Origin: a virus
Lineage: Duplodnaviria; Heunggongvirae; Uroviricota; Caudoviricetes
Virus record (IMG/VR): IMGVR_UViG_3300047202_000291
DNA length: 64,000 nt
Strand: one strand, 5' to 3'
The notes below the pieces were generated by a model. That model was not told where the DNA came from, made no database searches, and saw only the letters and a list, made by a program, of their open reading frames with translations. This document shows, piece after piece, positions 1 through 59,617 of the stretch. The position numbers and the translations under genes are program-made. Within the stretch, counting starts at the first letter, position 1, and each line of letters starts with the position of its first letter.

Positions 1-3000
1 ATTAGTCCAGCCGGTATTTCTCAGGTCTTTGCTCTAGGTGATGAAGTAGCATATTCAGCACAAGTTCCAATAATATCAAATATTACTGAATATGGTGAAA
101 CCGCAAATAGCATAAATATAAGTTGGTTTGTTGATCAGCCAGTAGATAATAGAATGCAGATTGCTAAGAATCCTTGGATACTTGATGCTGCTTGGGCTAG
201 CAGAATTATTAATTATACTGAAACTTTTGAGCACATATATGCTGACACAGATACTTCGGTTCGCCTTTATGTTAGGCCCCCGTATTATGGTGGGATAGTT
301 AGTGTTGTTTGCTCAAATCCAGCATATAGCGCAAATTATTTAATTAATGATAGCGCGAGTCCTGTCGAAATTACTTTCGGGGATGTTAATGAGACAGATT
401 ACTATGATTGGACTATAACTTATATTTTGAATGATACTATACAATGGAATACGGGTAGACCGGCTTTCATGGTAGATAATTTAGATGCGGACACAACTTA
501 TTATTATAGGCTTTGGGCATACGGCCTCGGTGGGCTCAATACAACTCAGGACGGAAGCTTCACTTTAGGAACTCCTCCGGCGACACCTTTATCTGAGATT
601 CACAACTATACTGAGAATAGGCCCGATGAGCAGGTTATAGTCTGTGGTGAACTTACAGATATGAATAGCGAATCTTCAATAGATTGTTCAATTCAATATT
701 GGAACGAGGAATCAACTACCTTCGGGGAAACAACCGCAGATACCATGACCTCAACAGGAACATTCTGTAAGACAATTGATGTTAACTATGGTCACACTTA
801 TGGCTATAGAGCTAAATGTGCTGCCTCAACCACCGGTTATAGTGACGCATACTTTAACGAATTCATGGCAATTCAACCATTCTTTGCCGGCAATCCGATA
901 GAGGATGATCAGGATTATGAAGATAGGCAATATTGTCCTGCGGGTCCTGGAATAGAGCCTTGTTATGAACAGAGAGGATACCGCGAAGGTTCATTGCAGG
1001 AGGAAGATTGGATATGGATAGAGACAAATATTACTGATCAAGGTACTTTAACAGTTCATTGGTGGGATGATGGTTGGTCAACCTATGATATGACAAATGA
1101 CACCGATTCAGATATGAGATATTTGGAATTAACAGGTCTAGATTCTGATTGGCAGACATTTTATATAACGGGATCAGCAGATAATTTGGTTTTGAATTGG
1201 ACAAAGCCATCTATGATTCATTTGGTAAATCAGAATAGGACCGACGAATCAAAATATGTTGCATTCGGAGGAACTCCAACTGCCATTGATTATCAATTAC
1301 TCTATATGGATTCTCAAATATATGATATAAGCGCATATAGGTGGTGCATTGCAGCCGGTGGTTCTCTGTATGATTGCATGGGAGTTCAGTATTGGGGTGG
1401 TGGCTACGAAACTGGGATTCCTCCGTCTTTAAGCGGAACTTCTTATGATAGAGGTCAGCTTTTCAGAGGCGGTGTGATTAATGGTGAAATGTACGACACC
1501 GGGATTCTTACAGAAATTAGGGACACCGGCAAATCTCTTGGGGATGATGTTTATAATCAAAGGTACTGCTTCGCATTCACAGATTACTGGTGGGATTATT
1601 CAATTGTTCCAAGTAACAATATAACTAATTATTATTATCATTATTGGACTGAGAATGAGAAATATTCAGATTATCTTGGTCATAATCAAGATAGGTTATT
1701 TGATTATATATATTTGATGAGATTTGAATATGATGAGTTTAGCATGACGAGGGACTGGAAAGCCATAACTGGAACCACCCAATATGATGAAAATGTGGTT
1801 AAGACTGCGAGTGGTTCTAATTGGGGTACCTCAGCAGATCAAAGTTTGCTTGTTGGCTATGTGGGTGGATTCAATGTAGCAACCGATAAGGATCAGATTT
1901 ACAACTTTGGATTCTATACTGATGGAAGGTGGACAAATCAACAGTTCGGTAAGTATCAGCAGGCCTTCGTTATATTCAACCTGCCGGATAATGCGACTCT
2001 TCAGAGCATGGACAGCGATTCTGATAATTTGACAGATTATGATGAGTTGTATATATATTATACTAACCCGAAGAGCAATGACACTGATGAAGATGGTAGA
2101 GTGGATACATATGAGATTTTATATGATTATGACCCTAATTTGCCAGATTCTTGTGGCGTTGATGATAATGCTTGTGATTATTGTCAGAAATGTGTTTTAG
2201 GAACGTGTACTTTTGAGGCCGCCGATGAGGATGTGAAAGATGATTGTGACTTATATTTTGATGATTGTACAAATGCTTATACCTTGTTAGGGTCTAGTGG
2301 ATTCTGTGATGGTGCCGGAGATTGCGCTTACCATGATTTCGAAGCCAATGTTTCTATAGGAAAGATTTGTGTTGCTGGGCAGAATGTTAGTCCTTCGAAC
2401 AGCGTAAATTGCGGAATTTGGGCTGATTGTGTTGCCGGAACTACAAATACTAGCAGTACATATTTTGTTGGTTATGCCGGCGATGGTACAGCTACTTGTG
2501 ATGATACTGGTTGGGTTTATAGGGGTTGGTCTAATTTCACTATGCCTGCAGGACCAAGAGAATCCTTTGCATCAGCAGTCTTCGATGGAAAAATGTGGCT
2601 TTTTGGTGGAATTGATGCTAATCCGTCATGGAACGCTTATAATGATGTTTGGTCTTCTACTGATGGGATTAATTGGACTCTCGTAACTGATAATGCTAGT
2701 TGGTCTAAGAGAGATAATATGGTGGCAATTGTTTATGACAATAAGATGTGGATCATGGGCGGTTACACTATAACCGGTGTTGAAAATGATGTTTGGTATT
2801 CGACAGATGGTGCTAATTGGATTCTTGCGACCGAACATGCAAATTGGTCTGATAGATATGCTTTTGGGTTAGTTGTATTTAATGGTGCAATGTGGCTCAT
2901 AAGCGGAACTCCAACTGGCTATGCGTGGGATACTGATATTTGGAATTCTACCGATGGAATAAGTTGGAATCACGTAACTGATCAAGCTTGGCCTTATTAT

Positions 3001-4140
3001 GGAAGAGAGTATTTTGAAGTTGTTGTATTTAATAATACAATGTGGTTAATCGGAGGTCATCGGTTAGCTGGTAGTAATTGGTATTCTACGGATGGGGTTT
3101 CTTGGGCCTCTTATGATCCGCCAACAAATTATTGGGGTCAGGGAACTGTGGTGCTTGATGATAAAATATGGGTCACTGGAGGATATGTGTGGGGTGTGGG
3201 AACAAGATCAGATATGTGGTATTCTTCAAATGGATTAAATTGGATTGAATCTGAGTCTAATGCTCCTTGGGGCCCGAGAGTTTATCATGAATCATTAGCA
3301 TATGATGATAAAATATGGCTTTTTGGAGGATCGCCAGACGGTGGGGATTGGGCATATGATGACCTTTGGACTAATGAGCCACCGACATTAGATGTTACTT
3401 CAGGGTATGTCATAAATGTTACCGAGCATGCCGAAGTGTGTCAGGAGATCCTTATTACGGTAAATGTTACTGGGGTTACAACAGATCAGTCAAGCGTAAG
3501 TCCACTAGAAGGATCAACAGTTGATGTATTTTTTAATGTATTTTTAGAGAAGGTTCTTGGGGGGATAACTTCTTACAATATATCCGCAGTGTCTCCTTCA
3601 GGTGCAAGATACGCAGCAACCTGTAACTATACTTTATTTAACATGTCTTGTGTAGTGCCGATGCAGTATTATTATGAGCCGGGATTATGTGATGTGGATG
3701 TATTTGTTAGCGATAATAATGGAAGCGGTGCCCTTTATAAGGATGATTTATTTGATTATGGGTCACTCTTGGCGATGAGAAAAGATAGAGATTATATGGC
3801 TTTGACCGGATCATTTATTGGATTGAATAATGTGTCATTTGATATGCCTATTGATATGACTAATTCTGGGAATGAGAATATTACGGCCATAAAGCTGACG
3901 GCATATGACATTCCTGGGGCCGTTGTTCCTTCAAAGAAGATATTGGCATCTTATTTTAGGGCGGGAATAAGCCTGTCTGATTCAGTGCAGCTTGAGAATA
4001 GTGTCGAGAAGAACATACCCTTTGCATTAACTCCAGGTCCAAATGCAACTGCTGCCTTCGGGATGTGGGTCTCAGTTCCAGCAGATGCTTATCCGCAGGC
4101 TTATGTTTCGGTTATTCCCTGGCAAATAATATTTGAATAA
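1..4140 (+). CDS. Large surface/adhesin-like protein, 5'-partial (frame open from nt 1). Repeated ~47-aa beta-propeller (Kelch/BNR-like) units, Cys-rich module, DxDxDG Ca-binding-like motif, many N-x-S/T sequons
   Basis: No stop in frame from nt 1. About 9 repeats of W.STDG.NW...W..R...VF...MW..GG (nt ~2560-3400). Cys-rich CGVDDNACDYCQKC...; NPKSNDTDEDGRVD. Confidence 0.8.
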   Translation: MSPAGISQVFALGDEVAYSAQVPIISNITEYGETANSINISWFVDQPVDNRMQIAKNPWILDAAWASRIINYTETFEHIYADTDTSVRLYVRPPYYGGIVSVVCSNPAYSANYLINDSASPVEITFGDVNETDYYDWTITYILNDTIQWNTGRPAFMVDNLDADTTYYYRLWAYGLGGLNTTQDGSFTLGTPPATPLSEIHNYTENRPDEQVIVCGELTDMNSESSIDCSIQYWNEESTTFGETTADTMTSTGTFCKTIDVNYGHTYGYRAKCAASTTGYSDAYFNEFMAIQPFFAGNPIEDDQDYEDRQYCPAGPGIEPCYEQRGYREGSLQEEDWIWIETNITDQGTLTVHWWDDGWSTYDMTNDTDSDMRYLELTGLDSDWQTFYITGSADNLVLNWTKPSMIHLVNQNRTDESKYVAFGGTPTAIDYQLLYMDSQIYDISAYRWCIAAGGSLYDCMGVQYWGGGYETGIPPSLSGTSYDRGQLFRGGVINGEMYDTGILTEIRDTGKSLGDDVYNQRYCFAFTDYWWDYSIVPSNNITNYYYHYWTENEKYSDYLGHNQDRLFDYIYLMRFEYDEFSMTRDWKAITGTTQYDENVVKTASGSNWGTSADQSLLVGYVGGFNVATDKDQIYNFGFYTDGRWTNQQFGKYQQAFVIFNLPDNATLQSMDSDSDNLTDYDELYIYYTNPKSNDTDEDGRVDTYEILYDYDPNLPDSCGVDDNACDYCQKCVLGTCTFEAADEDVKDDCDLYFDDCTNAYTLLGSSGFCDGAGDCAYHDFEANVSIGKICVAGQNVSPSNSVNCGIWADCVAGTTNTSSTYFVGYAGDGTATCDDTGWVYRGWSNFTMPAGPRESFASAVFDGKMWLFGGIDANPSWNAYNDVWSSTDGINWTLVTDNASWSKRDNMVAIVYDNKMWIMGGYTITGVENDVWYSTDGANWILATEHANWSDRYAFGLVVFNGAMWLISGTPTGYAWDTDIWNSTDGISWNHVTDQAWPYYGREYFEVVVFNNTMWLIGGHRLAGSNWYSTDGVSWASYDPPTNYWGQGTVVLDDKIWVTGGYVWGVGTRSDMWYSSNGLNWIESESNAPWGPRVYHESLAYDDKIWLFGGSPDGGDWAYDDLWTNEPPTLDVTSGYVINVTEHAEVCQEILITVNVTGVTTDQSSVSPLEGSTVDVFFNVFLEKVLGGITSYNISAVSPSGARYAATCNYTLFNMSCVVPMQYYYEPGLCDVDVFVSDNNGSGALYKDDLFDYGSLLAMRKDRDYMALTGSFIGLNNVSFDMPIDMTNSGNENITAIKLTAYDIPGAVVPSKKILASYFRAGISLSDSVQLENSVEKNIPFALTPGPNATAAFGMWVSVPADAYPQAYVSVIPWQIIFE

Positions 4141-4158
4141 AATTGAATGGGGTGTAAA

Positions 4159-4339: not shown

Positions 4340-5254
4340 ATGAGGGGTTGGCATTATGAATCTCATAGGCATAGTCTTGCAGCCAAAGGCATAAAGACTT
4401 CTCAGCCAAAGCTTGCCAAGGTTCTCAGATCAGAAAATATCATCTTTGAGCCAAAATACGATGGCACGCGCATGATTCTTGAGAAGAAGGGTTCTGAGCT
4501 TACATTCATCAATAGGCGCGGTGTCGTAAAGAATGATACTTATCCTGAATTATATAATATTAATAAGAGCATCAAGGGCGATGTAATTCTCGATGGTGAA
4601 GTTGTCGTTCTAGATAAGGAGCATCCCTTTGGCAATTTTGAAAAGCTCGCAATGAGAGATAGGCTAAAAGATAAAGAGGAAATAGAGAAAAGATCCAAAA
4701 CCCTTCCATTGACTTATGTTGTTTTTGATATTCTGGAAAAAGACAGGCAAAAGGTGGCAGATTTGCCATTGTCCGAGCGGAAGAAGATTCTTGATAATGT
4801 GATTGCACAAGGAAAGAACATCAGAGAAATAGAGTTCTCAAATAAATCAAGCGAGATGTTGTCTAAAGTTAAGCAGGCAAAAGGAGAAGGAATTGTGCAA
4901 AAAGACATCAATTCTAAATATGCACCAGGTTCCACGAGGTCCTGGGAAAAATACAAGCTTCTTAAGACAAATGATGTGGCAATAATTGGTATCACTTTAG
5001 GGACGGGAAGAAGAAAAGGTTATTTTGGTGCATTAAAGATTGCAGTTAATACTCCAAAAGGTTTAAAACCTGTTGGAAAAGTCGGCACCGGATTCTCAGA
5101 CGCTGATTTAAAGGAGATAAAAAGTAGATTGGATCAAGGTGAAAAACTCGTTGCTCGAATTCAATATAGAAAAATAGGTAGTGCTGATCATTATATTGAA
5201 CCTCGTTTTCAGGCAATTCGAACAGATATTTCTCAAAGTGATACGCACGAATGA
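4340..5254 (+). CDS. ATP-dependent DNA ligase (small, viral-type) carrying the shared N-terminal GW.YESYRHSLAAKGIKT module
   Basis: Motif I EPKYDGTRM (KxDGxR), motif III VILDGEVVV, motifs V/VI GIVQKD...WEKYKLLK. SD AGGGTGAG upstream. Confidence 0.85.
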   Translation: MRGWHYESHRHSLAAKGIKTSQPKLAKVLRSENIIFEPKYDGTRMILEKKGSELTFINRRGVVKNDTYPELYNINKSIKGDVILDGEVVVLDKEHPFGNFEKLAMRDRLKDKEEIEKRSKTLPLTYVVFDILEKDRQKVADLPLSERKKILDNVIAQGKNIREIEFSNKSSEMLSKVKQAKGEGIVQKDINSKYAPGSTRSWEKYKLLKTNDVAIIGITLGTGRRKGYFGALKIAVNTPKGLKPVGKVGTGFSDADLKEIKSRLDQGEKLVARIQYRKIGSADHYIEPRFQAIRTDISQSDTHE

Positions 5255-5522: not shown

Positions 5523-6359
5523 ATGAAGGGTTGGTATTACGAATCTTATCGTCATAGTCTTGCAGCCAAAGGTATAAGGACAAATTGGGTGTTAATCAAT
5601 GAGAATCCGAGCTATAAGCGCATAAGAATCAATCGCGGATATAAAGATGTCGTCCAGGTAGATGCAAAGACTCTTAAAGAGCGTTTTGAGAAGGATAATA
5701 ATACTCCTCTTGCTTGGAAGCAATTAAGATTCGATCTTCTGAAAAACTGTGAGGAGTTTGATCAATATCCTGAGGTTGATATTCTTTCTTCTGGCAAAAT
5801 AGATTTTAATGATGGTCGTCATAGGGTTGCTGTGGCCGCAGCTCGTGGCGAGACAATCGAAATAGCAGTTAAAAATAAAGATAAATTTCTTGAGGCTTTC
5901 AGTAAGCATTCTTTTGCTGCAAAGCAGGATCCTTATGAATTTCAGGATAGCAATCAGGAGAAGATAGTTCATGCTGATTGGTGGGGTGAGCAACAATATG
6001 ATGCGAATCATAGGCCTCTTCCTTTGCTCTGGAAAGATAATGAGCTCAGATTTGTTCTTGAGGGCTCTGGCGATATTTTCAGGGAGTTCTCAATACATAA
6101 AGCGGATAACTGGTGGTTTGCTCAGAATTATATTGATGAGAAGGCAGCCCGCATTAAGAAATATCTGACTGATCCTTCTTTGGCGAATCATTCCGTCGGA
6201 GAGATAAATAAAGCAAAGCTTGCAGAGATTAGAAGGCTTTGGACAATTCAGCCTTACGAAACAGAGTTGCAGAAGAAAGCTATTGATCTGAACCTTGCGA
6301 TAATTGATAAGGACAATGAGAAGGCACTTTCAATCTTAAAGGAGGTTTCGAAAGTATGA
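5523..6359 (+). CDS. ParB-like nuclease domain protein with the shared N-terminal module
   Basis: ParB/Srx motif FNDGRHRVAVAAARGE. N-terminus MKGWYYESYRHSLAAKGIRT. Confidence 0.7.
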   Translation: MKGWYYESYRHSLAAKGIRTNWVLINENPSYKRIRINRGYKDVVQVDAKTLKERFEKDNNTPLAWKQLRFDLLKNCEEFDQYPEVDILSSGKIDFNDGRHRVAVAAARGETIEIAVKNKDKFLEAFSKHSFAAKQDPYEFQDSNQEKIVHADWWGEQQYDANHRPLPLLWKDNELRFVLEGSGDIFREFSIHKADNWWFAQNYIDEKAARIKKYLTDPSLANHSVGEINKAKLAEIRRLWTIQPYETELQKKAIDLNLAIIDKDNEKALSILKEVSKV

Positions 6360-7105
6360 ATCGTTACAAACCCCTTGGTTGGCGTTATGAATCATACAGG
6401 CATTCCTTAGCAGCCAAAGGCATCAAAACAAGGTATAAGGTGCCTCCGGCATGGAGAAATGTTAAGTATTATAAGGATAAGCCGTATGTTGTAACTGGTG
6501 TTGATAAGAAAGGTAGGGTTCAATATATTTATCCTGAATCTTTTTCTTCTGCAAGCAGTGAAAAGAAGTTTAATAGGATTGAGCGCTTTGAGAAGCAAGC
6601 ACCGGCTATAATCGATTCTGTAATGAAGGATGTTAAAAAAGGAGATAATCCCGAGGCCGAAGTTGTTTATACGATGTACAAAACTGGATTTAGGCCAGGT
6701 TCGGAGAATGATACAATGGCGGAGAAGAAGGCGTTTGGTGCATCAACTTTGCTTAAGGATCACGTTTCTGTGCGAAAAGATGATGTTAAGTTTAAATTCA
6801 TTGCTAAGAAAGGCGTTCCTGTTGAAAAAGACGTTAAGGATAAGCTTCTTGCAGATATAATTAAGAGGCGCATGCAAAGTAGACGGCTCTTTGATACCTC
6901 TGAAGGTCGTTTAAGGGCTTATTTTGATAAAAAGACCCAAGGTAGGTTCCAATTAAAGGACCTGAGGACTTTGAAGGCCTATGAGGTCGCTAAGGAGGCT
7001 GGTGGCGATAAGAAGGAGATAGCTGAACGCGTTTCAGAGGAGCTCAGCAATACGCCCGCAGTCGCGATAAGTTCTTATGTTCATCCGAGGCTGATTAATG
7101 AATAG
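6356..7105 (+). CDS. Type IB topoisomerase-like catalytic-domain protein (compact) with the shared N-terminal module
   Basis: YKTGFRPGSENDTMAEKKAFGASTLLKDHVSVRKDDVKFKFIAKKGV resembles the poxvirus-type TopoIB core (GccsLr.eHv...v.F.F.GK). C-terminal LRTLKAY is a possible catalytic Tyr. N-terminus GWRYESYRHSLAAKGIKT. Confidence 0.5.
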   Translation: MNRYKPLGWRYESYRHSLAAKGIKTRYKVPPAWRNVKYYKDKPYVVTGVDKKGRVQYIYPESFSSASSEKKFNRIERFEKQAPAIIDSVMKDVKKGDNPEAEVVYTMYKTGFRPGSENDTMAEKKAFGASTLLKDHVSVRKDDVKFKFIAKKGVPVEKDVKDKLLADIIKRRMQSRRLFDTSEGRLRAYFDKKTQGRFQLKDLRTLKAYEVAKEAGGDKKEIAERVSEELSNTPAVAISSYVHPRLINE

Positions 7106-7760
7106 ATTAAAGCCAATCGGTTGGAAATACGAAGGATATAGGCATAGTTTAGCAGCTCGAGGTATCAAAACTTCTTTTAAATTAAAATATGGAAAAGACA
7201 TTCCCGCGCAGCTTCATACTGGTTCAAAGGAATTTAAGGATATTAGCGAAGTGAAACAGCACCTCCCTTTTAAGCCAAGGGGCGGTTTTTGGACTTCGAG
7301 CTATAGGCATGATGCAGAGCCTGGATCTAAAAGTGATTGGCTTGATTGGGCATCCTCAGAAATGCCTGGGAAAGCCAGTAGTGAACACATGATTCTTAGG
7401 CCAATTCCAAATGCAAAGATATTTGAGATCGATGATGAAGAAGATATGAGATATTTGTTTGATAAATATGGAACACTTGTGAGCGGTATGCCCGATATTG
7501 ACTGGCAGAAACTCTCGCAGGATTATGATGGATTGCGTGTGACTGAGAATGCTGCACGCAAGTTTCATTTGAATTACGTTTCTATGGAGGATTTGATTAA
7601 AAAGAAGGGATTGAAAAGTCCTTTTGGAAAAGATCATTTTTTATCAGGAGTTACCTTAAATGCTTGGGACTCTGAAAGTACAATTTGGTTTAGGGATGTT
7701 TTCAAGAAGAAAACTCCCGTTGATATGAAAATAAATGCTGAAATGGATACCGGATATTGA
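7098..7760 (+). CDS. Hypothetical protein with the shared N-terminal module
   Basis: N-terminus MNRLKPIGWKYEGYRHSLAARGIKT; no other recognisable domain. Confidence 0.65.
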   Translation: MNRLKPIGWKYEGYRHSLAARGIKTSFKLKYGKDIPAQLHTGSKEFKDISEVKQHLPFKPRGGFWTSSYRHDAEPGSKSDWLDWASSEMPGKASSEHMILRPIPNAKIFEIDDEEDMRYLFDKYGTLVSGMPDIDWQKLSQDYDGLRVTENAARKFHLNYVSMEDLIKKKGLKSPFGKDHFLSGVTLNAWDSESTIWFRDVFKKKTPVDMKINAEMDTGY

Positions 7761-16598: not shown

Positions 16599-17450
16599 AT
16601 GCCAGAACTAATGCCGATGCTCTTGCAGGAAGTGGAATTCTCAGAGGATGTCTTTGAGAAATATAAAGACTATGTTTGGCAAGAGAAGGAAAATGGCGTG
16701 CGGGTTATGGTTCATATAAAAGACGGGAAGATTTCTGCAGTAAGAAATAGGCGAAATAATCCTGTCTTGCATTTGTATCCAGAACTAACTGCACTTGATT
16801 TTGGGAAAATTAGTGCTATCTTGGACGGCGAACTTGTTGTCTTTAAAAATAACAAGAGTGTTTTCTATGGTGGTATTAATCAAAGGGATAAGCTTTATTC
16901 AAAGGATTCTGTGGAGAAATTTCCAGTTACATTTGTGGCTTTTGATATGATTTTTCTTAATAAGGAAATTCTATTAGGTAAGCCACATAATGAGAGGTAT
17001 GAACTTTTGAATACTGGATTTCTTTCATATACTGGAAAGCACTTTGTAATCTCTGATAATATTGCTGACCCAAAGAAATACTGGGCTGAGCACGTTATTC
17101 CGGAAGGAAGAGAAGGCTTGGTGCTTAAGGATCCCAAAAGCAAATATGAGCCAAGCCAAAGGTCTTGGTCTTGGCTGAAGCTTAAGAATTATAAGGTTGC
17201 TGAAGTGATTGTCGATAGCATTGATGTCAATGTTAAGGGCAATAAGATTACTGGAAAGGCAACTATTAATTCAGAAGTGTGTATTGTTGAGTGCCAATAC
17301 GGCGGCGTGTATAATATTCAGTTAGGCGATAAGCTTCCTGTCGAATATCTTGATATTGTCGGCGGGAAACTTATTCAGCCACATAAGCCAAGAAAATGGA
17401 AGCCAGAGGTGATTCAAAATGCCAGTGAAAATGAAAGTTCCAAAGATTGA
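16599..17450 (+). CDS. ATP-dependent DNA/RNA ligase (second copy; KxNG motif-I variant)
   Basis: Motif I KENGVR, motif III ILDGELVVF, motifs V/VI LVLKDPKSKY...WLKLK. Confidence 0.7.
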   Translation: MPELMPMLLQEVEFSEDVFEKYKDYVWQEKENGVRVMVHIKDGKISAVRNRRNNPVLHLYPELTALDFGKISAILDGELVVFKNNKSVFYGGINQRDKLYSKDSVEKFPVTFVAFDMIFLNKEILLGKPHNERYELLNTGFLSYTGKHFVISDNIADPKKYWAEHVIPEGREGLVLKDPKSKYEPSQRSWSWLKLKNYKVAEVIVDSIDVNVKGNKITGKATINSEVCIVECQYGGVYNIQLGDKLPVEYLDIVGGKLIQPHKPRKWKPEVIQNASENESSKD

Positions 17451-18670: not shown

Positions 18671-19111
18671 ATGCCAGATGTTGAAATGCAACCAGCAGAG
18701 CAACAGACAAAGTTGAAGGAGATGGGAGTTCATCAGATAAAGCTTGAGAAATATCTTTCTGAGGACGGGGAAGAGCTCATATGCAAAATGAGCCTGAATG
18801 ATAGCTTGAAGAACTTGCTTTCTGCTTTTATTGTTAAGGGTCAATATTCGACTGAAGATTATGATGGGCAGAAAATCAAGAGGTTTAAGATAAAATCTGT
18901 CTTGAGGAACTCTCAGAATTGGAACGGCTCGTTTGTTTATTTCTTCACAAAAGAGTGTGTCGAAGACGGCGCATATGAGATGAAATTTACAAATGTAAGT
19001 GCATTCCAGAACTTTGTTTCGGGTCTTAAGTATTTTAAGGATTTGATTAGGATAATGGAAGAGCTCAAGCGAAAGGAAACTATGGTTGTTTCATATAAGC
19101 TTGAAAGGTGA
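18671..19111 (+). CDS. Hypothetical protein
   Basis: Internal ATG with GGAGGCGATAAGATG context; the track start at 18596 is non-ATG. Confidence 0.6.
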   Translation: MPDVEMQPAEQQTKLKEMGVHQIKLEKYLSEDGEELICKMSLNDSLKNLLSAFIVKGQYSTEDYDGQKIKRFKIKSVLRNSQNWNGSFVYFFTKECVEDGAYEMKFTNVSAFQNFVSGLKYFKDLIRIMEELKRKETMVVSYKLER

Positions 19112-20166
19112 TTAGATTGAAGCCATCAATTGTATGTGGGATTGAAATTGAGATGGAGTATGATGCTCACCTGATGAAAATCAAGAAATCCAATTATCAT
19201 GAGGAATATGATGATAAGGAGGATTATTTTTGGGTCGGTGATAGCGAGAAGTTTATTGCCGAACGGGATGGTTCGCTTGGAGTCTACAAGTTTGCTGAGG
19301 GGGATTGTGTTGAGTTGATTAGTATTCCGTTTCTTATTGAAGACGGAATGCATATCGTTAAGGATTTTGCCAAGCAATTTGGAGCAATGATTGGAAATAA
19401 ACTTGACGAGGTAATCTGCTTTAATGATAGCACAGGAGCTCACATTCATCTAAGTTTGCTTAATCCGGAGAAAGAAGGATATACGAATATTGATTTAAGA
19501 GACCACATTAGGCATAAGTTCAAGGGAAAGCCGATGTTCTTTAGGGATATTATTGGTATATCTATTCTTAACAAGATTAAGGAGAGGCTTATTGAACGTG
19601 CGAAAGCGATTCTTTCAGATGATGCATTTGCTAAATGGTCTTCTGCTTTGGTTAGAGGTTTTGCTGCAAAGATTGAGGAAGAAAATCAGATGTACGAGGA
19701 TAGGCGAAGCGAATGGAATTTGACTTTGCATAATAGGATCGAATATCGGGGATTCAATCTGCGTGGGATTACTACTTGGGGGGAATTCTTTAAAATATAT
19801 GAACTCTTATTTTTAATAATTAAGGAAGTCATATATGAAGAGTTCGAAAGCAAAAAACCTTTCTTTAATCAATCGGTATATGAGCTTTTACCAGATGATT
19901 GCGCTGGTTTGTTTCCAAATGCATTACTTAATTATACAATTGTAGGTGGAAAAATACTTTCAGAGAATGCTGCCGTCTTTGATGTAGGGTTGGAACAATC
20001 ACATAAGAGAAGAAGATATGAAATTGAACTTCCTAATGCTCTTGAACCAGAGGTGAATTTTGTGATTGATATGAATTCATCGCCAGAATGGAATGCAGAT
20101 TGGATTGATGACAGGCCATATTGGGATGAAGATAAGGAACCAGATGAGGACGAAGGAGGTAATTAA
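19108..20166 (+). CDS. Amidoligase-like enzyme (Amidoligase_2/GCS2-like)
   Basis: GIEIEMEY, RDGSLG, ELISIP, STGAHIHLSL. Same motif order as the paralog at 21407. Confidence 0.45.
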   Translation: MIRLKPSIVCGIEIEMEYDAHLMKIKKSNYHEEYDDKEDYFWVGDSEKFIAERDGSLGVYKFAEGDCVELISIPFLIEDGMHIVKDFAKQFGAMIGNKLDEVICFNDSTGAHIHLSLLNPEKEGYTNIDLRDHIRHKFKGKPMFFRDIIGISILNKIKERLIERAKAILSDDAFAKWSSALVRGFAAKIEEENQMYEDRRSEWNLTLHNRIEYRGFNLRGITTWGEFFKIYELLFLIIKEVIYEEFESKKPFFNQSVYELLPDDCAGLFPNALLNYTIVGGKILSENAAVFDVGLEQSHKRRRYEIELPNALEPEVNFVIDMNSSPEWNADWIDDRPYWDEDKEPDEDEGGN

Positions 20167-26182: not shown

Positions 26183-26782
26183 ATGAAACCGAAACTCAGT
26201 ATAAAGTATTATCAGAACGCAGACAAGAATCATCAGGATTCTTTTTGGTATGATGGAGATATTGCATTGCTTAAATATAAGAATCGAGAAGTGCTTGTAG
26301 TCGCTGCAGGCGACATAAGGATTCACAATAAAAGAGGTGAGTTGGTCTATGATTGTAAGCCCCGCAATTCAGGATTTTCATTCAAGCTTGAGCAAGATAA
26401 AGATTTGTATAAGATAGGTAATAATTATGATGATGATTTCTATTGGGAAAATAACAACTGGTTCGAGCTCTTTTATAAGAACAAAGGAGATTCTAATTGG
26501 AATGATATTTTAGGTGATGTTTATTTTGACTATGGTGTTGTAATAAAAGCGGCGAAAGATGCAATTAAGGATGATAAATGGTGGAATGAAACCTGGAATA
26601 AAGCTACCTGTCTTGAGTGTAAGAAGGAGTTTATTCAGGAAAGGGACATTCAGCTTTGTGATGTTTGCATAAAGAAGTTCAATCTTGACAAGCTCTGGAA
26701 AGACCACGACAATAATAAAATTGATGCTCTTGATTTTAATGAGTCTAAAAAGATACGAGAAAAATATAGGGTGAAGAAATAA
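26183..26782 (+). CDS. Hypothetical protein with a C-terminal CxxC...CxxC motif
   Basis: ATG after GAGGT. Confidence 0.55.
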   Translation: MKPKLSIKYYQNADKNHQDSFWYDGDIALLKYKNREVLVVAAGDIRIHNKRGELVYDCKPRNSGFSFKLEQDKDLYKIGNNYDDDFYWENNNWFELFYKNKGDSNWNDILGDVYFDYGVVIKAAKDAIKDDKWWNETWNKATCLECKKEFIQERDIQLCDVCIKKFNLDKLWKDHDNNKIDALDFNESKKIREKYRVKK

Positions 26783-27933
26783 TGGAAGTAACACACGAAC
26801 AGTTGGCTATGCTTATTGAAGAGCACCGAAGGGCAGGGCTTCCTTTGTTTGTTGATGGTGCAACAGGCATCGGTAAATCTGAAGCTGGTATTAAGAGCAG
26901 TAAGATGTATGCTGATAGAATAAGTAGGCAATGGGTTGCTTGGGTTGATCTATCTAATTTAGATAGGCATAAGTTTCTTGATGACAAGGAGATTGTGAAG
27001 GTTCATTTATTCGTTGACATAAGGACGGCTCTTTTGGAACCGACTGACCTTCTTGGTTTGCCGTTTAAGGATGAGCGTGGTTATGTTGCTTGGTTGCCGA
27101 CTCTTCTTTTCAAGATTCTGAGTTTGCCTTCAGTTTCAGCTACTATATTCTTTGACGAATTCAATTTAGGCAGTTTGATGGTCATGAAATCCAGTTATCA
27201 GCTTATTCTTGATAAGGCCATAGGGGAAGTCAAGCTTGGTAAGGATGTTACAATTCTTGCAGCAGGAAACAGGATTGAGGATCGTGCTCACGTTACAGAG
27301 TCTCCAGCTCCATTAAACAATAGGTTTAGCCATTGCACTTTGCTTTGTCCAACTCCAGATGAGTGGATTATGTATAATCTTAAATCAGAATATCCTGAGC
27401 CAAGGCTCGTTTCTTTCATTAAGTTCAAGCCTAAATATATCTTTGACTTTAAGCCTAACCAAAAGGAGAAAGCATTTCCTACTCCGAGGGCGATTCAGCA
27501 GTTGGCTATGTTGCTTAAGGGAAAAGATGAGATGAATGAGCTCGATAATATGACCATGCTCGCCCAGGCGAAATGTGGTGATGCTTTCGGTGCAGAGTTT
27601 CAATCCTTCTTGCGTCTTACGAGGAAGGTTAATGTTGATGAGATTCTAGAGCATCCTGAAAAGGTGCATGAATTTGAAAAACAGCTTGACTTGAAATATT
27701 CATTAATCTCTGGGGTTGCCGTAAGGGTGAAGCAGGACTTCAATAAGATGGAACAGGCCCTCAAAGTTATAGCCGAGCTTGAAGATGAGTATGGTGTCTT
27801 TTTATTGAGAATGATTATTGATATTTGCGGTATGAAGGTGTTGTCCGTCCTTGAGCATAGTAAGACTTGGGAAACCAGGCTCTATGATAAGTTTAAGGAC
27901 ATATTAAGCACGAGATTTGCGCAGGTGAGTTAA
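26782..27933 (+). CDS. MoxR-family AAA+ ATPase
   Basis: Walker A DGATGIGKSE, Walker B IFFDEFN, sensor AAGNR, PLNNRF arginine-finger motif. Confidence 0.8.
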   Translation: MEVTHEQLAMLIEEHRRAGLPLFVDGATGIGKSEAGIKSSKMYADRISRQWVAWVDLSNLDRHKFLDDKEIVKVHLFVDIRTALLEPTDLLGLPFKDERGYVAWLPTLLFKILSLPSVSATIFFDEFNLGSLMVMKSSYQLILDKAIGEVKLGKDVTILAAGNRIEDRAHVTESPAPLNNRFSHCTLLCPTPDEWIMYNLKSEYPEPRLVSFIKFKPKYIFDFKPNQKEKAFPTPRAIQQLAMLLKGKDEMNELDNMTMLAQAKCGDAFGAEFQSFLRLTRKVNVDEILEHPEKVHEFEKQLDLKYSLISGVAVRVKQDFNKMEQALKVIAELEDEYGVFLLRMIIDICGMKVLSVLEHSKTWETRLYDKFKDILSTRFAQVS

Positions 27934-30967: not shown

Positions 30968-32218
30968 ATGGTTGACGAAAATCTCCTTAAAAGCATCAAG
31001 CGTTGTAAGATTGCTTTGCAAAGAGACTATCCTTTTTTCTCAGATCTGCTTTTCTTTATTACTGTGAAAGAGGGTAATGATGAAGTTCCGACAGCTAAGA
31101 TTGATATTCATGGTAACTTGACTTATAATTCGAAGTTTATGGCAGGTCTGAATGATGATGAGAAGAAAGTAGTGATTTGTCATGAAACACTTCATTCGGG
31201 TCTTTTGCATCTCGCAAGGGGTCACAGTATTGTGCAGTCCCCAGAATATTGGGAAATATATAATATTGCCGCAGATGCCGTGACTAATTATATTCTTGCC
31301 GAGAATGGCTTTATGTTTTCTAAGAAGATAACTTCAATCATTCCAGATGTATATGGGAATAATGTTCAGCTCAAGACAGAAAGTGGGACTCTACTCTATA
31401 CTGTTGAAAAGATTAAGGAGAAGACCGTTGAGAAGGTATTTCATGAATTGTGTAAGAATCTCCCGATTACTTATATTAAGGTTCATATAGTCGGTGCTAA
31501 AGGAGATGGATCCGGCATAAAGAGATTCGATATTCATGGCTTTGGCGAAGGCAAAGAGGCTTCTCAAAAAGCAGAAAAGGAATGGAAGCAAAGGCTCATA
31601 AATGCAGTTGCCCGTGCAAAAAGTATAGGTAAGCTTCCTTCAGGAATAGATCGATATGTCGATAAGATTCTTGAGCCGAAAGTTAGATGGCAGGATATTC
31701 TTTATAGGTTCATTACAGAGCAGATGCCTCATGATTATACATATAGGCGCCCTCATAAGCGTTCAGAAGTTCTTGGCTATTATGTTCCGAGTTATGTCAA
31801 GGAGATGCTCAGGGTTGCTTCATTTATAGATACCTCAGGCTCTATTTCACAGCAAGCTATTGCTGAGTTTAAGGCAGAGAATGTCGGCATAGCTCGTGCC
31901 TTTGAGTCCGTCCAGATTCACCTTGGCTATATTGATGTTCAAGTTCACGATGTTCTTGAGGTCACCAATGGCAATACAGATAAGATTGTTGATTTTGTGC
32001 CAAAAGGTGGCGGTGGAACAGACATGCGTAATGTATTTACCTGGCTCGATAGGAATCTTCCAGATGCCGAGCTTGTTGTTATTTTCACAGATGGTTACAC
32101 GCCTTGGCCTAAGCCAGAGCAAATCTGTCAAAGAAAAGTCCTTTGGCTAGTTAATACTAATGAAAAAGTTCCTTCGGGAATCGGTGAGGTGATTCGATAT
32201 GACAGTGAACAGCTTTGA
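30968..32218 (+). CDS. VWA-domain protein with an N-terminal HExxH putative metallopeptidase domain (DUF2201-like); MoxR partner
   Basis: HETLHSGLLH (HExxH). MIDAS DTSGS...GGGTD...TDGY. Confidence 0.75.
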   Translation: MVDENLLKSIKRCKIALQRDYPFFSDLLFFITVKEGNDEVPTAKIDIHGNLTYNSKFMAGLNDDEKKVVICHETLHSGLLHLARGHSIVQSPEYWEIYNIAADAVTNYILAENGFMFSKKITSIIPDVYGNNVQLKTESGTLLYTVEKIKEKTVEKVFHELCKNLPITYIKVHIVGAKGDGSGIKRFDIHGFGEGKEASQKAEKEWKQRLINAVARAKSIGKLPSGIDRYVDKILEPKVRWQDILYRFITEQMPHDYTYRRPHKRSEVLGYYVPSYVKEMLRVASFIDTSGSISQQAIAEFKAENVGIARAFESVQIHLGYIDVQVHDVLEVTNGNTDKIVDFVPKGGGGTDMRNVFTWLDRNLPDAELVVIFTDGYTPWPKPEQICQRKVLWLVNTNEKVPSGIGEVIRYDSEQL

Positions 32219-43932: not shown

Positions 43933-44358
43933 ATGGAAAAAACAAATATTAAGAAAAAAAGAAAAGAACTTGTTGTTCCAAAGCCTCCAGTCATACATTC
44001 AGGGACAACTCCTCTGAGCGTAGCAAATTCTTCGCAAATAAAATCATCTAATCGATTAACCGTGGGTCAATGGGCTTTTGTGTTTTTGATTGCAGCTTGT
44101 ATTCTATTGTTATATTTAGTGGTTACTGGCGGGTTCATTCATATGAAAGAAGCTTCGGCTAATAAGAGGGTGTCTGTTTATGGCGAGAATGGGGCGCTCA
44201 ATGAAATTTCATGTGCAGATATTTGCGATAGCCATAATTATGTTACTATTGGAGTTGCACACGGTGTCGAGACTAATCGTAATCCAGTATGCTTTTGTGT
44301 TGAGAGTATAGCATATGAAAAGAAAACAGAAAATAAAATATGGACATTTACCATATAA
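43933..44358 (+). CDS. Membrane-anchored Cys-containing protein
   Basis: ATG at 43933. Confidence 0.5.
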   Translation: MEKTNIKKKRKELVVPKPPVIHSGTTPLSVANSSQIKSSNRLTVGQWAFVFLIAACILLLYLVVTGGFIHMKEASANKRVSVYGENGALNEISCADICDSHNYVTIGVAHGVETNRNPVCFCVESIAYEKKTENKIWTFTI

Positions 44359-44371
44359 GCGAGGTGGAAAA

Positions 44372-44965
44372 ATGGAAGTAAGCAAAGGTTGGGTTGTTGG
44401 AATAACTATAACGGCCATATTGTTGTTTCTTATATTTACATCAATAGGCTGGGTCGTCGGCTTCTATAATAAGATGGTTGTAGCAAGGCAGGACATTGAT
44501 ACGCAGTTCAGCAACATAAAGACAGAGTATCAGAGAAGGGCAGATCTCTTTGTCAATCTTGTTGAAGTCGCGAAAGGTTATGCAAATTTCGAGCAGGATA
44601 CATTAGTTGAAGTTACCAAGATGCGTAATCTTAATTTCGCAGGGCTTCAAGGAACAAAGGAAGAGCAGATGGCTCAGCTTAATGGCATAGAAGGCACTTT
44701 GTCAAGGTTGTTGGTTGTGCTTGAGAAATATCCCGAATTGAAGACGGTTGAGCTTTATACTAAGCTCCACGACCAAATTCGTTCAACAGAGGATAGGATA
44801 CAGATTGCTCGTTCGGACTACAACGGCATTGTTAGGAGCTATAACATTCAGAGACAAAGATTCCCGAATGTTCTGCTTGCAAATATAATGGGCTTTGCTC
44901 AGGAGAAATACTTTGAGAACCAGCCCGGAACAGAGCAGGCACCCGTAATAAATGCAACAATTTAG
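44372..44965 (+). CDS. lemA: LemA-family protein
   Basis: N-terminal TM then YQRRADLFVNLVEVAKGYANFEQ...R. SD GAGGTGG upstream. Confidence 0.7.
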   Translation: MEVSKGWVVGITITAILLFLIFTSIGWVVGFYNKMVVARQDIDTQFSNIKTEYQRRADLFVNLVEVAKGYANFEQDTLVEVTKMRNLNFAGLQGTKEEQMAQLNGIEGTLSRLLVVLEKYPELKTVELYTKLHDQIRSTEDRIQIARSDYNGIVRSYNIQRQRFPNVLLANIMGFAQEKYFENQPGTEQAPVINATI

Positions 44966-45765: not shown

Positions 45766-46734
45766 ATGGAAGAAGATTTAAGGAAAGTAATGAAGATTGT
45801 CCTTACGGGAGGAGTGATTTTGATATTTATAATCCTGTTTTTTGGGACATTCTATACAATACAGTCGGGTCAGGAGGGTATTCTTTTGACTTTCAATAAG
45901 GCAGCGCCAGCAGGTATTCAGCCAGGGCTTCATCTGAAGTTTCCATTGATCCAGAGAATTGTGAAATTCAATGTCAGGACGCAGGCTTACGGCGCTAGCG
46001 GAACTGAAAACACATTGGAAAGTGCAGCATCATCAGATCTTCAGCAAGTGAAGATGCAGTTGGTTGTGAATTACCATTTAACTGCGGGTAGAGTTCCCGA
46101 GTTGTTCACAAACGTAGGGCCTGCTTATGAAGATACTGTTATTAGGCCAACAGTTCATGAAGCAACAAAGGCTTGTACAGCGAAATTTGCGGCAGTGGAG
46201 CTAATTAATAAGAGAGAGGACGTAAGTGTTTGTATGAGCGATTTGTTGAAGGGGAAACTAGGTATATATAATATAGTGGTTGAGCAGGTATCAATCACGG
46301 CCTTTGATTTCAGTGAGCAATTCAACAACGCTATCGAACAAAAAGTAACAGCAGAGCAGGATGCATTGAAAGCAAGGAATAAGCTTGAGCAGATTAAGAT
46401 GGAAGCTGAGCAAGTTCGTGCGGCTGCAGCAGGGCAAAGGGACGCTAAGATAGCTACTGCTGAGGGAGAGGCTCAATATATCAAGCTCATTCAGGAGCAG
46501 CTTATAAGGAGTCCTCAATACATTGAGTATGTGAAAGCAAAGCAGTGGAATGGTGTGTTGCCTCAATTTTATATGAGTGGCAGCAGTAATCCGTTGATCA
46601 TGCAGTTGCCTAGCTTGACATCGAGTAGCTTGACTGCTTCGAGCAGCGGGTATGTGCCGGTGGAGGTTCCATTGACTATGCCTGGTGAGATTATTGCACA
46701 TGGTACGAATGCGACAAATTCAACCAAAGCTTGA
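45766..46734 (+). CDS. SPFH/band-7 (prohibitin/HflK-like) membrane protein
   Basis: N-terminal TM; GQEGILLTFNK...PGLHLKFPLIQ...VQLVVNYHL; C-terminal coiled coil. Confidence 0.75.
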   Translation: MEEDLRKVMKIVLTGGVILIFIILFFGTFYTIQSGQEGILLTFNKAAPAGIQPGLHLKFPLIQRIVKFNVRTQAYGASGTENTLESAASSDLQQVKMQLVVNYHLTAGRVPELFTNVGPAYEDTVIRPTVHEATKACTAKFAAVELINKREDVSVCMSDLLKGKLGIYNIVVEQVSITAFDFSEQFNNAIEQKVTAEQDALKARNKLEQIKMEAEQVRAAAAGQRDAKIATAEGEAQYIKLIQEQLIRSPQYIEYVKAKQWNGVLPQFYMSGSSNPLIMQLPSLTSSSLTASSSGYVPVEVPLTMPGEIIAHGTNATNSTKA

Positions 46735-56462: not shown

Positions 56463-56951
56463 ATGAATGAAGAGAATGTGTTCCAAATCGTGTTTATGGT
56501 ATGCATAATATTTCTTTTTGGATTTGGGATTTTATATAGGGAGCCGGTAGCATATAGCATCGCAAAGGGCGAATTGCTTTCGGCATCAAAACAATATGAC
56601 GAGCTTGTGGTGCCTTATCTTTCCAATTGTAACCAGTTACAGGATGACGCGCAGGTGAGATGTATGATAGACGAACTTAGGCCGATCATAAAATATAATG
56701 GGACTGAAAAATCCTTAACAATTTTATCTCCGGAAAAATATCTTGAGCGTGGCGGAACCTGCAAAGAGATTGCAGCAATTTATGCTTCTGCATTTAGGCA
56801 GTTGAATTGGACGAGGGTTGATTTTAGGTCTCCGGTTCCAAGGCACATGTCAATTACCATAGCTAAAGCGATTGATAATAGTACCTGGATTTATTGTGAT
56901 GTGGAGATGAACAGAGCAAATTGTATCAACGTCCAAAATACACTATGGTAA
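56463..56951 (+). CDS. Transglutaminase-like protein (second copy) with an N-terminal TM
   Basis: ERGGTCKEIAAIYASAFRQLNW...H...D. Confidence 0.5.
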   Translation: MNEENVFQIVFMVCIIFLFGFGILYREPVAYSIAKGELLSASKQYDELVVPYLSNCNQLQDDAQVRCMIDELRPIIKYNGTEKSLTILSPEKYLERGGTCKEIAAIYASAFRQLNWTRVDFRSPVPRHMSITIAKAIDNSTWIYCDVEMNRANCINVQNTLW

Positions 56952-57832
56952 ATTTATCAAGTATTTCGAAGGTTATCCGTATATTTACTTATCCTATAAT
57001 ACTTTTGTTACTATTCCCTATATTGATTTCGGCGAATTGGGGTTTTTGTGAATTGCCGGATTATATTAATTGTGTTGAGAATAATTTTACTTATCAAGAT
57101 GAAATTATTCATAGCAAGATTGCGTGGACAATGATTGATGATCGTGGCTTGACTTACGAGCAATTTGCTCCGAGCTCTTTTGCAGTCGGCAATGTTTATG
57201 TCCACATATATTATGAAGGTGACGAGCTCTGGTATCTTTATAATCTCACTGATTGGAGCAATGAAACAATAGATAAATATACGACCCTTAGCGGTCCAGG
57301 AATTTTGCTTGATGGCTCTGGTTATTATAAGCTTGCTTCCCTTTTAGATGAATATGTTGGTTGTCCGGTTTTTGTAGCCTTGGCTTATAGCGATCAAACA
57401 TGGCTTGATGAAAATAATACAGAATGGATAACCTATGGCTGGGCCGGAGCAGGTTATTTGAAGCCAAAAAATAATACTTGTAGCCACATAAGAGTTGCGG
57501 AATGCTTGGCCGATGCGGATTGTCTTGAAAATGAATATTGCAATAGACCAGATAATCAGCTCTGGAAAAATTGGTCTTGTCAGCCAATTCCAGATGGCAT
57601 GAAAGTGGATAAGACTCCGATTGTCAAAAATTCTTTCATAGGAACAAATTATTTATCTAGAGCAGGTGGTGGATCTGGTTATACTCCGACCTACGAGAAA
57701 TCAGATGTTCGGAACATATTTATTGATATTGTGGCAACTCCCCTCGTATCTTTTATACAATGGATTGATTTGCTTGCACTCGCTATAATTATTGGAATTA
57801 TCGGGATATTTATTTTGAGGTTCAAAAAATGA
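56921..57832 (+). CDS. Secreted/membrane-anchored protein with N-x-S/T sequons and a C-terminal TM
   Basis: Signal peptide; C-terminal hydrophobic helix. Confidence 0.55.
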   Translation: MYQRPKYTMVNLSSISKVIRIFTYPIILLLLFPILISANWGFCELPDYINCVENNFTYQDEIIHSKIAWTMIDDRGLTYEQFAPSSFAVGNVYVHIYYEGDELWYLYNLTDWSNETIDKYTTLSGPGILLDGSGYYKLASLLDEYVGCPVFVALAYSDQTWLDENNTEWITYGWAGAGYLKPKNNTCSHIRVAECLADADCLENEYCNRPDNQLWKNWSCQPIPDGMKVDKTPIVKNSFIGTNYLSRAGGGSGYTPTYEKSDVRNIFIDIVATPLVSFIQWIDLLALAIIIGIIGIFILRFKK

Positions 57833-59109: not shown

Positions 59110-59198
59110 AGGTGCGTAGCTCAACAAAAGAGCACCAGGCCTTTTATCAATGAAAGAAACCTGCGAGGTTGCGAGTGAGAATCTCGTCGCGCCCACCA
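59110..59198 (+). tRNA. tRNA-like element with encoded 3' CCA, preceded by GGTGCGTA x3 (identity unresolved)
   Basis: 3' CGCGCCC-A-CCA; D-arm GCTC-AACAAAA-GAGC; T-arm GCGAG-TGAGAAT-CTCGT. Anticodon region irregular. Confidence 0.3.
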
Positions 59199-59200
59199 TT

Positions 59201-59274
59201 GGGGTTGTGGGGTCTTAACAGAAACCTGTCGGTCTCCAGAACCGAAGATCCGTGTGCGAATCACGGCAATCCCA
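59201..59274 (+). tRNA. tRNA-Trp (CCA)
   Basis: Acceptor GGGGTTG/CAATCCC; anticodon arm TCGGT-CTCCAGA-ACCGA; T-arm CCGTG-TGCGAAT-CACGG. Confidence 0.7.
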
Positions 59275-59284
59275 TTTTTTTAAA

Positions 59285-59356
59285 GGGCTCTGGGTAGGGA
59301 AGCGACACGCCTCGCTTGCAACGAGGAAACAGCGCGAGCATTACGCGCAGAGTCCA
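59285..59356 (+). tRNA. tRNA-Ala (TGC)-like
   Basis: Acceptor GGGCTCT/AGAGTCC; anticodon arm CCTCG-CTTGCAA-CGAGG; T-arm GCGCG-AGCATTA-CGCGC (atypical loop). Confidence 0.35.
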
Positions 59357-59416
59357 TTATTTGTAATCATTACAAAAAATAATGATTAATAATCATATCG
59401 CGAAAAAAAGTTATAT

Positions 59417-59499
59417 GCGCAGTTGGGGAAGCGGTCAAACCCGCTCCGCTTAGGACGGAGTGCCTAGCGCTACCACAGGTTCGAATCCTGTACTGCGCA
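59417..59499 (+). tRNA. tRNA-Leu (TAG), type II
   Basis: Acceptor GCGCAGT/ACTGCGC; anticodon arm CTCCG-CTTAGGA-CGGAG; 14-nt variable arm; T-arm ACAGG-TTCGAAT-CCTGT. Confidence 0.8.
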
Positions 59500-59501
59500 T
59501 C

Positions 59502-59617
59502 GCGGACGTGTCCGAGCGGCCGAAGGAGCCAGATTCAAATAAAGGCTAAACTTAAAGCCATCGGAGAAATCTGGTGCTAAGTGCATAACAACAGCGGTTC
59601 AACTCCGCTCGTCCGCA
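59502..59617 (+). tRNA. tRNA-Leu (CAA) with an ~30-nt intron at 37/38
   Basis: Acceptor GCGGACG/CGTCCGC; anticodon stem CCAGA...TCTGG flanks TTCAAA plus a hairpin-containing insert; long variable arm; T-arm AGCGG-TTCAACT-CCGCT. Confidence 0.7.

Follow-up and report, generated by a model that had tools for sequence, protein, structure and literature searches.

A candidate modular surface adhesin of a DPANN-type archaeal family, with an exchangeable Kelch head, on a virus-like mobile element

Giant surface proteins are thought to mediate the attachment of DPANN archaea to the cells on which they depend, and to our knowledge almost none of them has been characterised. A gene for a protein of this size lies at the left edge of a 64,000-nucleotide (nt) stretch of DNA recorded as viral (IMG/VR record IMGVR_UViG_3300047202_000291; the whole stretch is hereafter called the window), and raises the question of whether its product belongs to a virus particle, to an ordinary cell surface, to an enzyme or to something between them. 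The answer that we favour, and consider probable by a modest measure, is that the gene encodes a modular, exported and probably N-glycosylated adhesin of ~2,650 amino acids (aa) from a DPANN family, which binds a partner surface and is carried by a virus-like mobile element of ~117 kb. Judged with the help of its closest relative, the architecture of the protein would be a signal peptide, a variable N-terminal region, a stalk of FN3 (fibronectin type III) domains, a conserved core, a thrombospondin-type-3 (TSP3) hinge, an exchangeable head cassette and a conserved C-terminal domain. The parts that fall within the window are listed here, with AlphaFold confidence given as the predicted local distance difference test (pLDDT).

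1 to 4140, + strand: 3' part of the giant gene (1,379 codons plus stop), with ~1,271 upstream codons missing as judged from the related protein P0133
58 to 870, + strand: tandem FN3-like beta-sandwich stalk domains, aa ~20-290 (pLDDT ~90)
960 to 2010, + strand: family-defining conserved domain (the core), aa ~320-670, the minimal unit common to all ~45 clusters of the family
2011 to 2142, + strand: two TSP3 calcium-binding-type repeats at the close of the conserved core
2118 to 3817, + strand: exchanged head cassette without DNA similarity to the closest relative (aa 715-1137 at the protein level)
2152 to 2499, + strand: Cys-rich orphan module, aa 718-833, with 13 Cys (from Cys positions)
2542 to 3408, + strand: six-bladed Kelch beta-propeller, aa 848-1136 (from Pfam, motif count, AlphaFold and Foldseek), with blades at aa 848-898, 899-946, 947-996, 997-1038, 1039-1087 and 1088-1136
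3412 to 4137, + strand: conserved beta-rich C-terminal domain, aa 1138-1379 (from identity to P0133, P0134, P0149 and P0006)

On the + strand, frame 1 runs without interruption from nt 1 to a stop at 4138-4140. The closest relative, P0133, is a protein of 2,648 aa with a Sec signal peptide (its start reads MKKFILFLALILYLVVLASFASA) and with 1,271 residues ahead of the point at which the window begins, its residue 1272 corresponding to aa 1 of the window protein. The two are homologous from the very first codon onwards: they share 80% of their residues over aa 1-714, and blastn of the window against the related locus L009 gives 78% identity in the DNA over nt 1-2117. Since the frame is open from nt 1 and P0133 aligns from codon 1, the gene is truncated at its 5' end by the edge of the window, as a preliminary description of this DNA had already recognised; an ATG at nt 154, listed by the ORF (open reading frame) finder, was rejected as the start because the similarity to P0133 runs from codon 1. 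Judged from this relative, the whole protein would measure roughly 2,650 aa (~2,650), of which the window would hold the C-terminal half, that is the last 1,379 residues.

A sharp boundary runs within the gene. When the window was aligned with L009 by blastn, 78% identity over nt 1-2117 was followed by nothing over nt 2118-3817 and then by 71% identity over nt 3818-4142, and the break at nt 2117 falls just past the second TSP3 repeat. In the place of the Cys-rich module and the Kelch propeller, P0133 carries an unrelated Peptidase_M26_N/GLUG-like region. Judged from the aligned genes, these data show a head cassette swapped between proteins with 80%-identical cores.

The cassette of the window protein ends in a six-bladed propeller that is recognisable at several levels. 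Six protein repeats of 42-51 aa occupy aa 848-1136, in which the motif [MI]W-x-x-[GS]G occurs six times and W-x-S-x-[DN]G-x-x-W five times. They agree with the Kelch pattern of tandem 44-56-aa units that have a hydrophobic strand, a GG doublet and conserved W/Y and close into 6-7 blades. In the DNA, between nt 2644 and 3372, a 36-nt unit is present six times at spacings of 126-147 nt, its copies matching the reference copy at 64-100% identity. Where about nine repeats of ~47 aa had been described, the repeats are real and visible in the DNA but number six, not nine. In Pfam, the propeller scores over the gathering thresholds of both PF24681 (57.2 bits, cutoff 50) and PF01344 (45.7 bits, cutoff 20.1). 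AlphaFold2 modelled aa 842-1134 at pLDDT ~95 from an alignment of 39 homologues, and Foldseek matched the resulting model to six-bladed LZTR1, KLHDC2/3 and SAKe6 designs at a target-normalised TM-score of ~0.75. A BNR/Asp-box reading of the STDG motif was rejected: no BNR family was found in the Pfam scan, and the motif of the window protein, S-[TS]-[DN]-G-x-x-W, is one residue shorter from D to G than the Asp-box S-x-D-x-G-x-T-W. The Kelch cassette is a member of a very large prokaryotic subfamily, with >1,500 matches at 30-41% identity. In L011, the gene of a family member is followed 4.6 kb downstream by one for a Kelch protein to which the cassette is 42% identical.

Ahead of the propeller, the Cys-rich module holds 13 Cys in aa 718-833 vs 14 across the other 1,263 residues of the protein. 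It has no homologue among 5.8 billion proteins and its AlphaFold pLDDT is ~30. The enrichment in Cys that had been described as a Cys-rich knot is thus present, whereas the knot itself is not confirmed by a module of this low model confidence and without a homologue. In the relative P0005 (L005, 10001-17146), a ~200-aa insertion of repeated Cys-rich units was observed at residues ~1440-1640, at the junction of the FN3 stalk and the core; therefore Cys-rich modules recur in the family at differing positions.

The segments on either side of the cassette are conserved. Foldseek matched the stalk model to arrays of tandem FN3 domains in titin, fibronectin, contactins and SiiE, a giant adhesin, and a profile search of the PDB recovered titin FN3 for this part at E 3e-5. 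The predicted models show FN3-like sandwiches in the stalk and a Kelch fold in the propeller; Foldseek searches with these confident parts of the AlphaFold models, a check suggested by the preliminary description, gave no enzyme fold. The core is distinguished by the motifs LNWTKP, YDRG-LFRGG-NGE-DTG, NNITNYYY, DGRWTNQ and QQAFVIFNLPDNATL, its family alignment has invariant columns, and the minimal common unit of the family corresponds to profile positions ~322-729 (~400 aa). This ~400-aa core has no match in Pfam and no relative in the PDB by sequence or profile search, and its AlphaFold model (pLDDT <50) is unusable.

The core closes with two acidic D-x-D-x-D-G-x-x-D-x-x-E loops that are predicted to be TSP3-like calcium-binding repeats. 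The copies read DSDSDNLTDYDE (aa 671-682) and DTDEDGRVDTYE (aa 694-705), and their Asp residues are invariant in the family; the Ca-binding-like loop DTDEDGRVD noticed earlier (aa 694-702) is real and belongs to the second of them. The window protein itself had no PF18884 match at E<0.1 in the Pfam scan. The orthologous stretch of P0002 matches PF18884 (TSP3_bac) at E 1.4e-6, and profile positions 683-726 of the family alone match thousands of TSP3-repeat proteins.

Beyond the cassette, the C-terminal domain carries the motifs C-x-VP-QYYY-x-G and NTGN, always stands at the extreme C-terminus and has no transmembrane (TM) anchor. Its identity is 41% to the last 243 residues of P0133, 34% to P0134, 27% to P0149 and 28% to P0006. 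A search of 5.8 billion proteins gave no homologue of this domain, and those in P0133, P0134 and P0149 were found later in a search of cluster representatives. No PDB match was obtained by sequence or profile search, and the AlphaFold confidence is too low for use (pLDDT <50).

A second line of evidence comes from the N-glycosylation sequons, N-x-S/T with x not P. The window protein contains 34 of them vs 14.0 +/- 3.4 expected from 5,000 composition-preserving shuffles of the same protein (z 5.9; 0/5,000 shuffles reached 34), and 18 of the reversed motif [ST]-x-N. The excess is seen in the core (16 vs 7.0 expected) and in the C-terminal domain (9 vs 2.5), and it extends to the family: 34 members contain 3,375 forward vs 1,568 reversed motifs, with z>3 in 94% of them. 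Of 10 aligned sequences, 7 or more have a sequon at each of nine columns, and one site, N399-W-T, never varies. As a control, 120 Kelch homologues (mostly bacterial where named) gave a median observed/expected ratio of 1.06. The shuffles, the reversed motif, the Kelch-homologue control and the positional conservation rule out an artefact of composition. Where dozens of sites had been described, there are 34. The archaeal-type sequon density of the preliminary description agrees with these data: the excess over a composition-matched expectation is real and family-wide, relatives with a name come from archaea, and the excess is lacking in bacterial Kelch homologues. The refuting condition set in that description, a sequon frequency no higher than composition predicts, was thus not observed. 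This pattern is what selection for N-glycosylation would produce, and the protein is probably glycosylated.

Most full-length family members have a Sec-type signal peptide, and in many the C-terminus is a hydrophobic TM segment with basic residues after it, a combination that is the usual topology of archaeal envelope proteins. On the evidence of P0133 and the family, we infer that the window protein would also be exported. Mild sequon enrichment was observed in the other + strand ORFs of the window (72 vs 47), and two other ORFs are sequon-enriched, namely 19108-20166 (5 vs 1.4 expected) and 56921-57832 (7 vs 2.2); the latter is Cys-rich with a faint Dickkopf_N-like match. Both may encode further exported glycoproteins of the element.

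To which organisms does the family belong? In the first search, only aa 4-714 were common to other proteins, namely ten giant proteins at 42-54% identity in which the shared part always lies mid-protein. An exhaustive profile search of 1.84 billion cluster representatives raised the family to ~45 clusters with the core, whose proteins measure 1,400-5,610 aa, bar a few short fragments; some relatives contain Laminin_G_3 and DUF2341 domains. No relative of the window protein was found in 50,697 phage records by tblastn or in IMG/VR by protein pattern. The GTDB genome collection holds the core in four loci, all of them in archaeal metagenome-assembled genomes (MAGs). Their titles give Nanoarchaeota for one and no more than 'archaeon' for two, and the fourth is on a 615-kb contig of Woesearchaeota. 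The open frames in DPANN MAGs are very long, with at least 6,623 codons in L004 (1-19871), at least 4,747 in L003 (2-14242) and at least 4,096 in L002 (2-12289), and since all three are still incomplete at the edge of the locus or contig these are lower bounds; they are among the largest archaeal genes. Neighbouring genes include deoxyhypusine synthase and ribonucleotide reductase in L003, the archaeal-type release factor aRF1, an aminoacyl-tRNA synthetase and UvrC in L015, and a class I (Trp/Tyr-type) tRNA synthetase in L014, with phosphoribosyl pyrophosphate (PRPP) synthetase also found among the neighbours in these three loci. Because of these housekeeping neighbours in MAG loci, the family is native to DPANN-type archaeal chromosomes. 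We read it as a small group, not described before, of giant surface proteins from such archaea, the named members being Woesearchaeota or Nanoarchaeota.

The window itself looks like part of a mobile element. All of its ORFs of at least 150 aa lie on the + strand, except for two that overlap + strand ORFs, and the GC skew is uniformly positive throughout. Its recognisable genes include two ATP-dependent DNA ligases, a type IB topoisomerase, an amidoligase and a phosphoesterase, in addition to others listed below; most of the other 31 scanned ORFs have no family match.

4340-5254 and 16599-17450: ATP-dependent DNA ligases
6356-7105: type IB topoisomerase (Topo IB)
26782-27933 and 30968-32218: MoxR-like AAA ATPase and its DUF2201 metallopeptidase/VWA partner
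44315-44965 and 45766-46734: LemA and SPFH/Band-7 pair
59110-63069 (59.1-63.1 kb): 16 packed tRNA genes, two with anticodon-loop insertions
61295-61407: tRNA with a GAU anticodon and a 41-nt insertion after position 37 that folds as an extended anticodon stem
62981-63069: tRNA with a 16-nt insertion in the anticodon loop

The two ligases and the topoisomerase lie within 13 kb, and with a PolX-like gene added in L009 the set resembles that of large eukaryotic DNA viruses. The MoxR/DUF2201 and LemA/SPFH sets are membrane or chaperone-type accessory modules. Both insertion-bearing tRNAs were found by Rfam and missed by ARAGORN; in both length and placement, such insertions are characteristic of splicing of the archaeal or eukaryal type and not of bacterial group I introns. 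The GC content rises from ~0.38 to ~0.43 in the region of the tRNA array.

The proteins of the window are present in IMG on a contig of 117,127 bp, and related proteins on one of 116,114 bp. In other samples the same element occurs at 100% identity (L010), and a relative of it at 63-71% protein identity (L009). Taken together, the window is most simply read as part of a ~117 kb mobile replicon of an archaeon that is virus-like in look. Genes for a capsid, portal or tail, or for a clear terminase, were detected neither in the window nor in L009, where the 10 kb upstream of the giant gene gave no PHROG or tblastn match to a virion gene.

With the protein and its surroundings described, a sequence of events can be proposed, parts of which are more conditional than others. 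A Sec signal peptide such as that of P0133 would move the chain across the membrane, where the oligosaccharyltransferase of the host would glycosylate many of the conserved N-x-S/T sites, as their enrichment and conservation suggest. The FN3-like beta-sandwiches seen in the models would form an extended stalk, followed by the conserved ~400-aa domain and by the pair of TSP3 calcium-binding repeats as a junction. The head cassette, for which exchange is seen in the comparison with P0133, would then bind a ligand, in this copy through a disulfide-rich module and the six-bladed Kelch propeller; binding by the Kelch face is predicted by analogy with the general behaviour of Kelch domains. Finally, the C-terminal domain would presumably attach the protein to the envelope, since other members have a TM helix there. 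The surface that is bound may be the host cell of the archaeon, or the protein may act as a spike on a membrane-derived particle.

The adhesin and surface reading is supported because FN3 and Kelch folds, the signal peptide of P0133, the conserved family-wide sequon excess and the archaeal identity of the named relatives all point to it. Hence the adhesion or surface part of the host-recognition or adhesion protein first proposed holds, whereas viral host recognition is unlikely, given that the searches above gave no virion genes and that the Sec signal of P0133 and the sequons argue against a cytoplasmically assembled tail fibre. It should be noted that several considerations weigh on the other side. 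The assignment to a mobile element comes with no hallmark gene (no capsid, portal or clear terminase) and no relative in IMG/VR. Glycosylation is predicted from sequon statistics; the signal peptide is that of P0133 by proxy, the N-terminus of this copy lying outside the window; and the binding of a ligand is presumed. In addition, the core, the Cys-rich module and the C-terminal domain are all modelled at pLDDT <50, which leaves room for an enzymatic activity in these regions.

Among the alternatives, the one that survives best, although we think it unlikely, is that a large archaeal virus has the protein in its virion, as a fibre or for receptor binding, with the core anchored to the particle and the swappable Kelch head recognising a receptor. 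A conserved body with a swapped distal cassette is the classic pattern of receptor-binding proteins, and Kelch propellers are found both in jumbo phage proteins whose annotation is virion structural and in fibre-like proteins that also contain chaperone domains. The contexts of P0005 and P0006 are likewise similar to a mobile element: the ORFs around them are tiny, lie on the same strand and have no match among known families, one neighbour has a weak terminase-like match and another a weak minor-tail match. P0007 stands in a row of giant genes, one of which has DUF2793. However, the Sec signal of P0133 and the sequons of the family imply export and extracytoplasmic glycosylation, which fits only a membrane-derived virion, and because of these two features a cytoplasmically assembled tail fibre is unlikely; they would suit a spike on a membrane-derived virion as well as a cell-surface adhesin expressed from the element. 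Moreover, the window protein has no PHROG match, its neighbours have no structural match and are DNA enzymes, and several homologues are plainly chromosomal.

Like phage tail fibres and receptor-binding proteins, the window protein combines a proximal body that is conserved with a distal module that is unrelated in close relatives, the two meeting at a sharp recombination boundary. Unlike these, its family has a signal peptide, an N-glycosylation signature and a conserved domain after the variable cassette; the missing PHROG match and the missing structural matches among the neighbours are further differences.

A more speculative possibility, which we regard as doubtful, is that a DPANN virus of ~117 kb has captured a giant symbiosis adhesin of its host and swaps its heads, Kelch in one copy and a GLUG-like beta-helix in the close relative, the product either forming spikes on a membrane-derived virion or re-targeting the partner attachment of the infected cell. 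If this were true, it would be a case of a virus manipulating a cell-cell symbiosis.

It is less probable still that the window is ordinary DPANN chromosome and the gene a giant surface adhesin of the cell itself. This would agree with the homologues of 2,800 to >6,600 aa that stand beside housekeeping genes on archaeal MAG contigs of up to 615 kb, and with DPANN genomes in general, in which hypothetical genes abound and giant surface proteins are known to be encoded (PMC10266531). Yet none of the 31 larger ORFs scanned across 60 kb matches a housekeeping family, and the strict orientation of genes on one strand, the 16-tRNA array, the duplicated DNA ligases and the recurrence of the same gene set in other samples on contigs of 116-117 kb all argue for a mobile element instead.

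Lastly, a catalytic Kelch domain of the galactose oxidase or NanM sialic-acid mutarotase type, making the protein a surface-tethered carbohydrate-modifying enzyme, is highly improbable: to set beside a weak sequence match to YjhT/NanM (E 0.0036) and the 'N-acetylneuraminic acid mutarotase' annotation of some JGI (Joint Genome Institute) homologues, the best structural matches are the peptide- or protein-binding LZTR1 and KLHDC2/3 and designer propellers, and the replacement of the cassette by a non-Kelch module in the 80%-identical P0133 suits a binding head better than an essential enzyme.

The favoured reading, that of an exported adhesin borne by a mobile element, can be compared with several known systems. 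DPANN archaea have giant Sec-exported surface proteins with immunoglobulin (Ig)/FN3 arrays, for example the nanohaloarchaeal SVXNc_0300 (9,409 aa) and the 'SPEARE' proteins, whose traits include a C-terminal TM anchor and a VirB4/TraG-like ATPase domain (PMC10266531). The window protein resembles them in its very large size, its Sec signal (by proxy here), its Ig/FN3-like arrays, its presumed role in attachment to a partner cell and its origin in ultra-small archaea, and an ATPase gene lies near the giant gene in two relatives of the family. However, no sequence relationship was found in any search; the window protein has no hydrophobic C-terminal segment, and the part of it in the window has no VirB4/TraG-like ATPase domain. 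It has instead its own 400-aa core, a TSP3 hinge, a Kelch head and a location on a mobile element. It works like the SPEARE giants but stands outside their group, and its own core family is undescribed. As to the ATPase genes themselves, one of the HerA/DUF87 type (L014, 8509-9825) lies directly downstream of the giant gene, and a weak AAA_10 match (L008, 2936-4624) lies ~3.4 kb upstream of it; both echo the VirB4/TraG ATPase beside the nanohaloarchaeal giant proteins.

The prokaryotic secreted Kelch proteins (PF01344/PF24681; repeat DVW-S-DG--WT...W--R...VF-NK-WV-GG) are related to the propeller itself, which is 30-42% identical to >1,500 of them. They differ in being mostly of 400-1,100 aa, joined to Big_2, PKD or type IX secretion system (T9SS) domains and not enriched in sequons, whereas the propeller of the window is one cassette of a giant protein. 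For viruses of the Candidate Phyla Radiation (CPR) and DPANN, genes of the adhesion type (LamG/concanavalin) have been reported (PMC11310336). Common to these and the window are a mobile or viral genome of an ultra-small symbiont with a cell-adhesion protein and, in family relatives, Laminin_G_3; by contrast, the window part of the protein has no LamG, its size and head exchange are not described there, and the viral nature of the element is putative here.

The locus thus delimits a small family whose conserved 400-aa core has no counterpart in Pfam or the PDB, and combines a strong, conserved N-glycosylation signature, an exchange of heads between near-identical copies and a copy on a mobile, virus-like genome. 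As head cassettes can be compared across copies, it offers a concrete handle on partner specificity in DPANN symbioses or in their viruses.

Two further observations concern the genes around the giant gene. An N-terminal tag of ~20 aa, (K)GW[YH]YE[SG][YWH]RHSLAA[KR]GI[KR]T, heads the four consecutive genes that directly follow it, at these starts.

4340-4400: DNA ligase
5523-5580: 278-aa ORF
6356-6440: Topo IB
7098-7175: 220-aa ORF

The tag recurs at the start of 11 genes around the giant gene in L009 (including the PolX-like gene, Topo IB and ligase) and of 2 in L016, and it is conserved in the DNA as well (~55 nt, ~80% identity). A pattern search of IMG/VR did not return it. In appearance it resembles a signal by which DNA-repair enzymes would be targeted or packaged. 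At the far end of the window, two small ORFs inside the tRNA array (60824-61285 and 62209-62736) have weak HNH_3 and HNH endonuclease matches, which are on record for the identical Logan contig L087.

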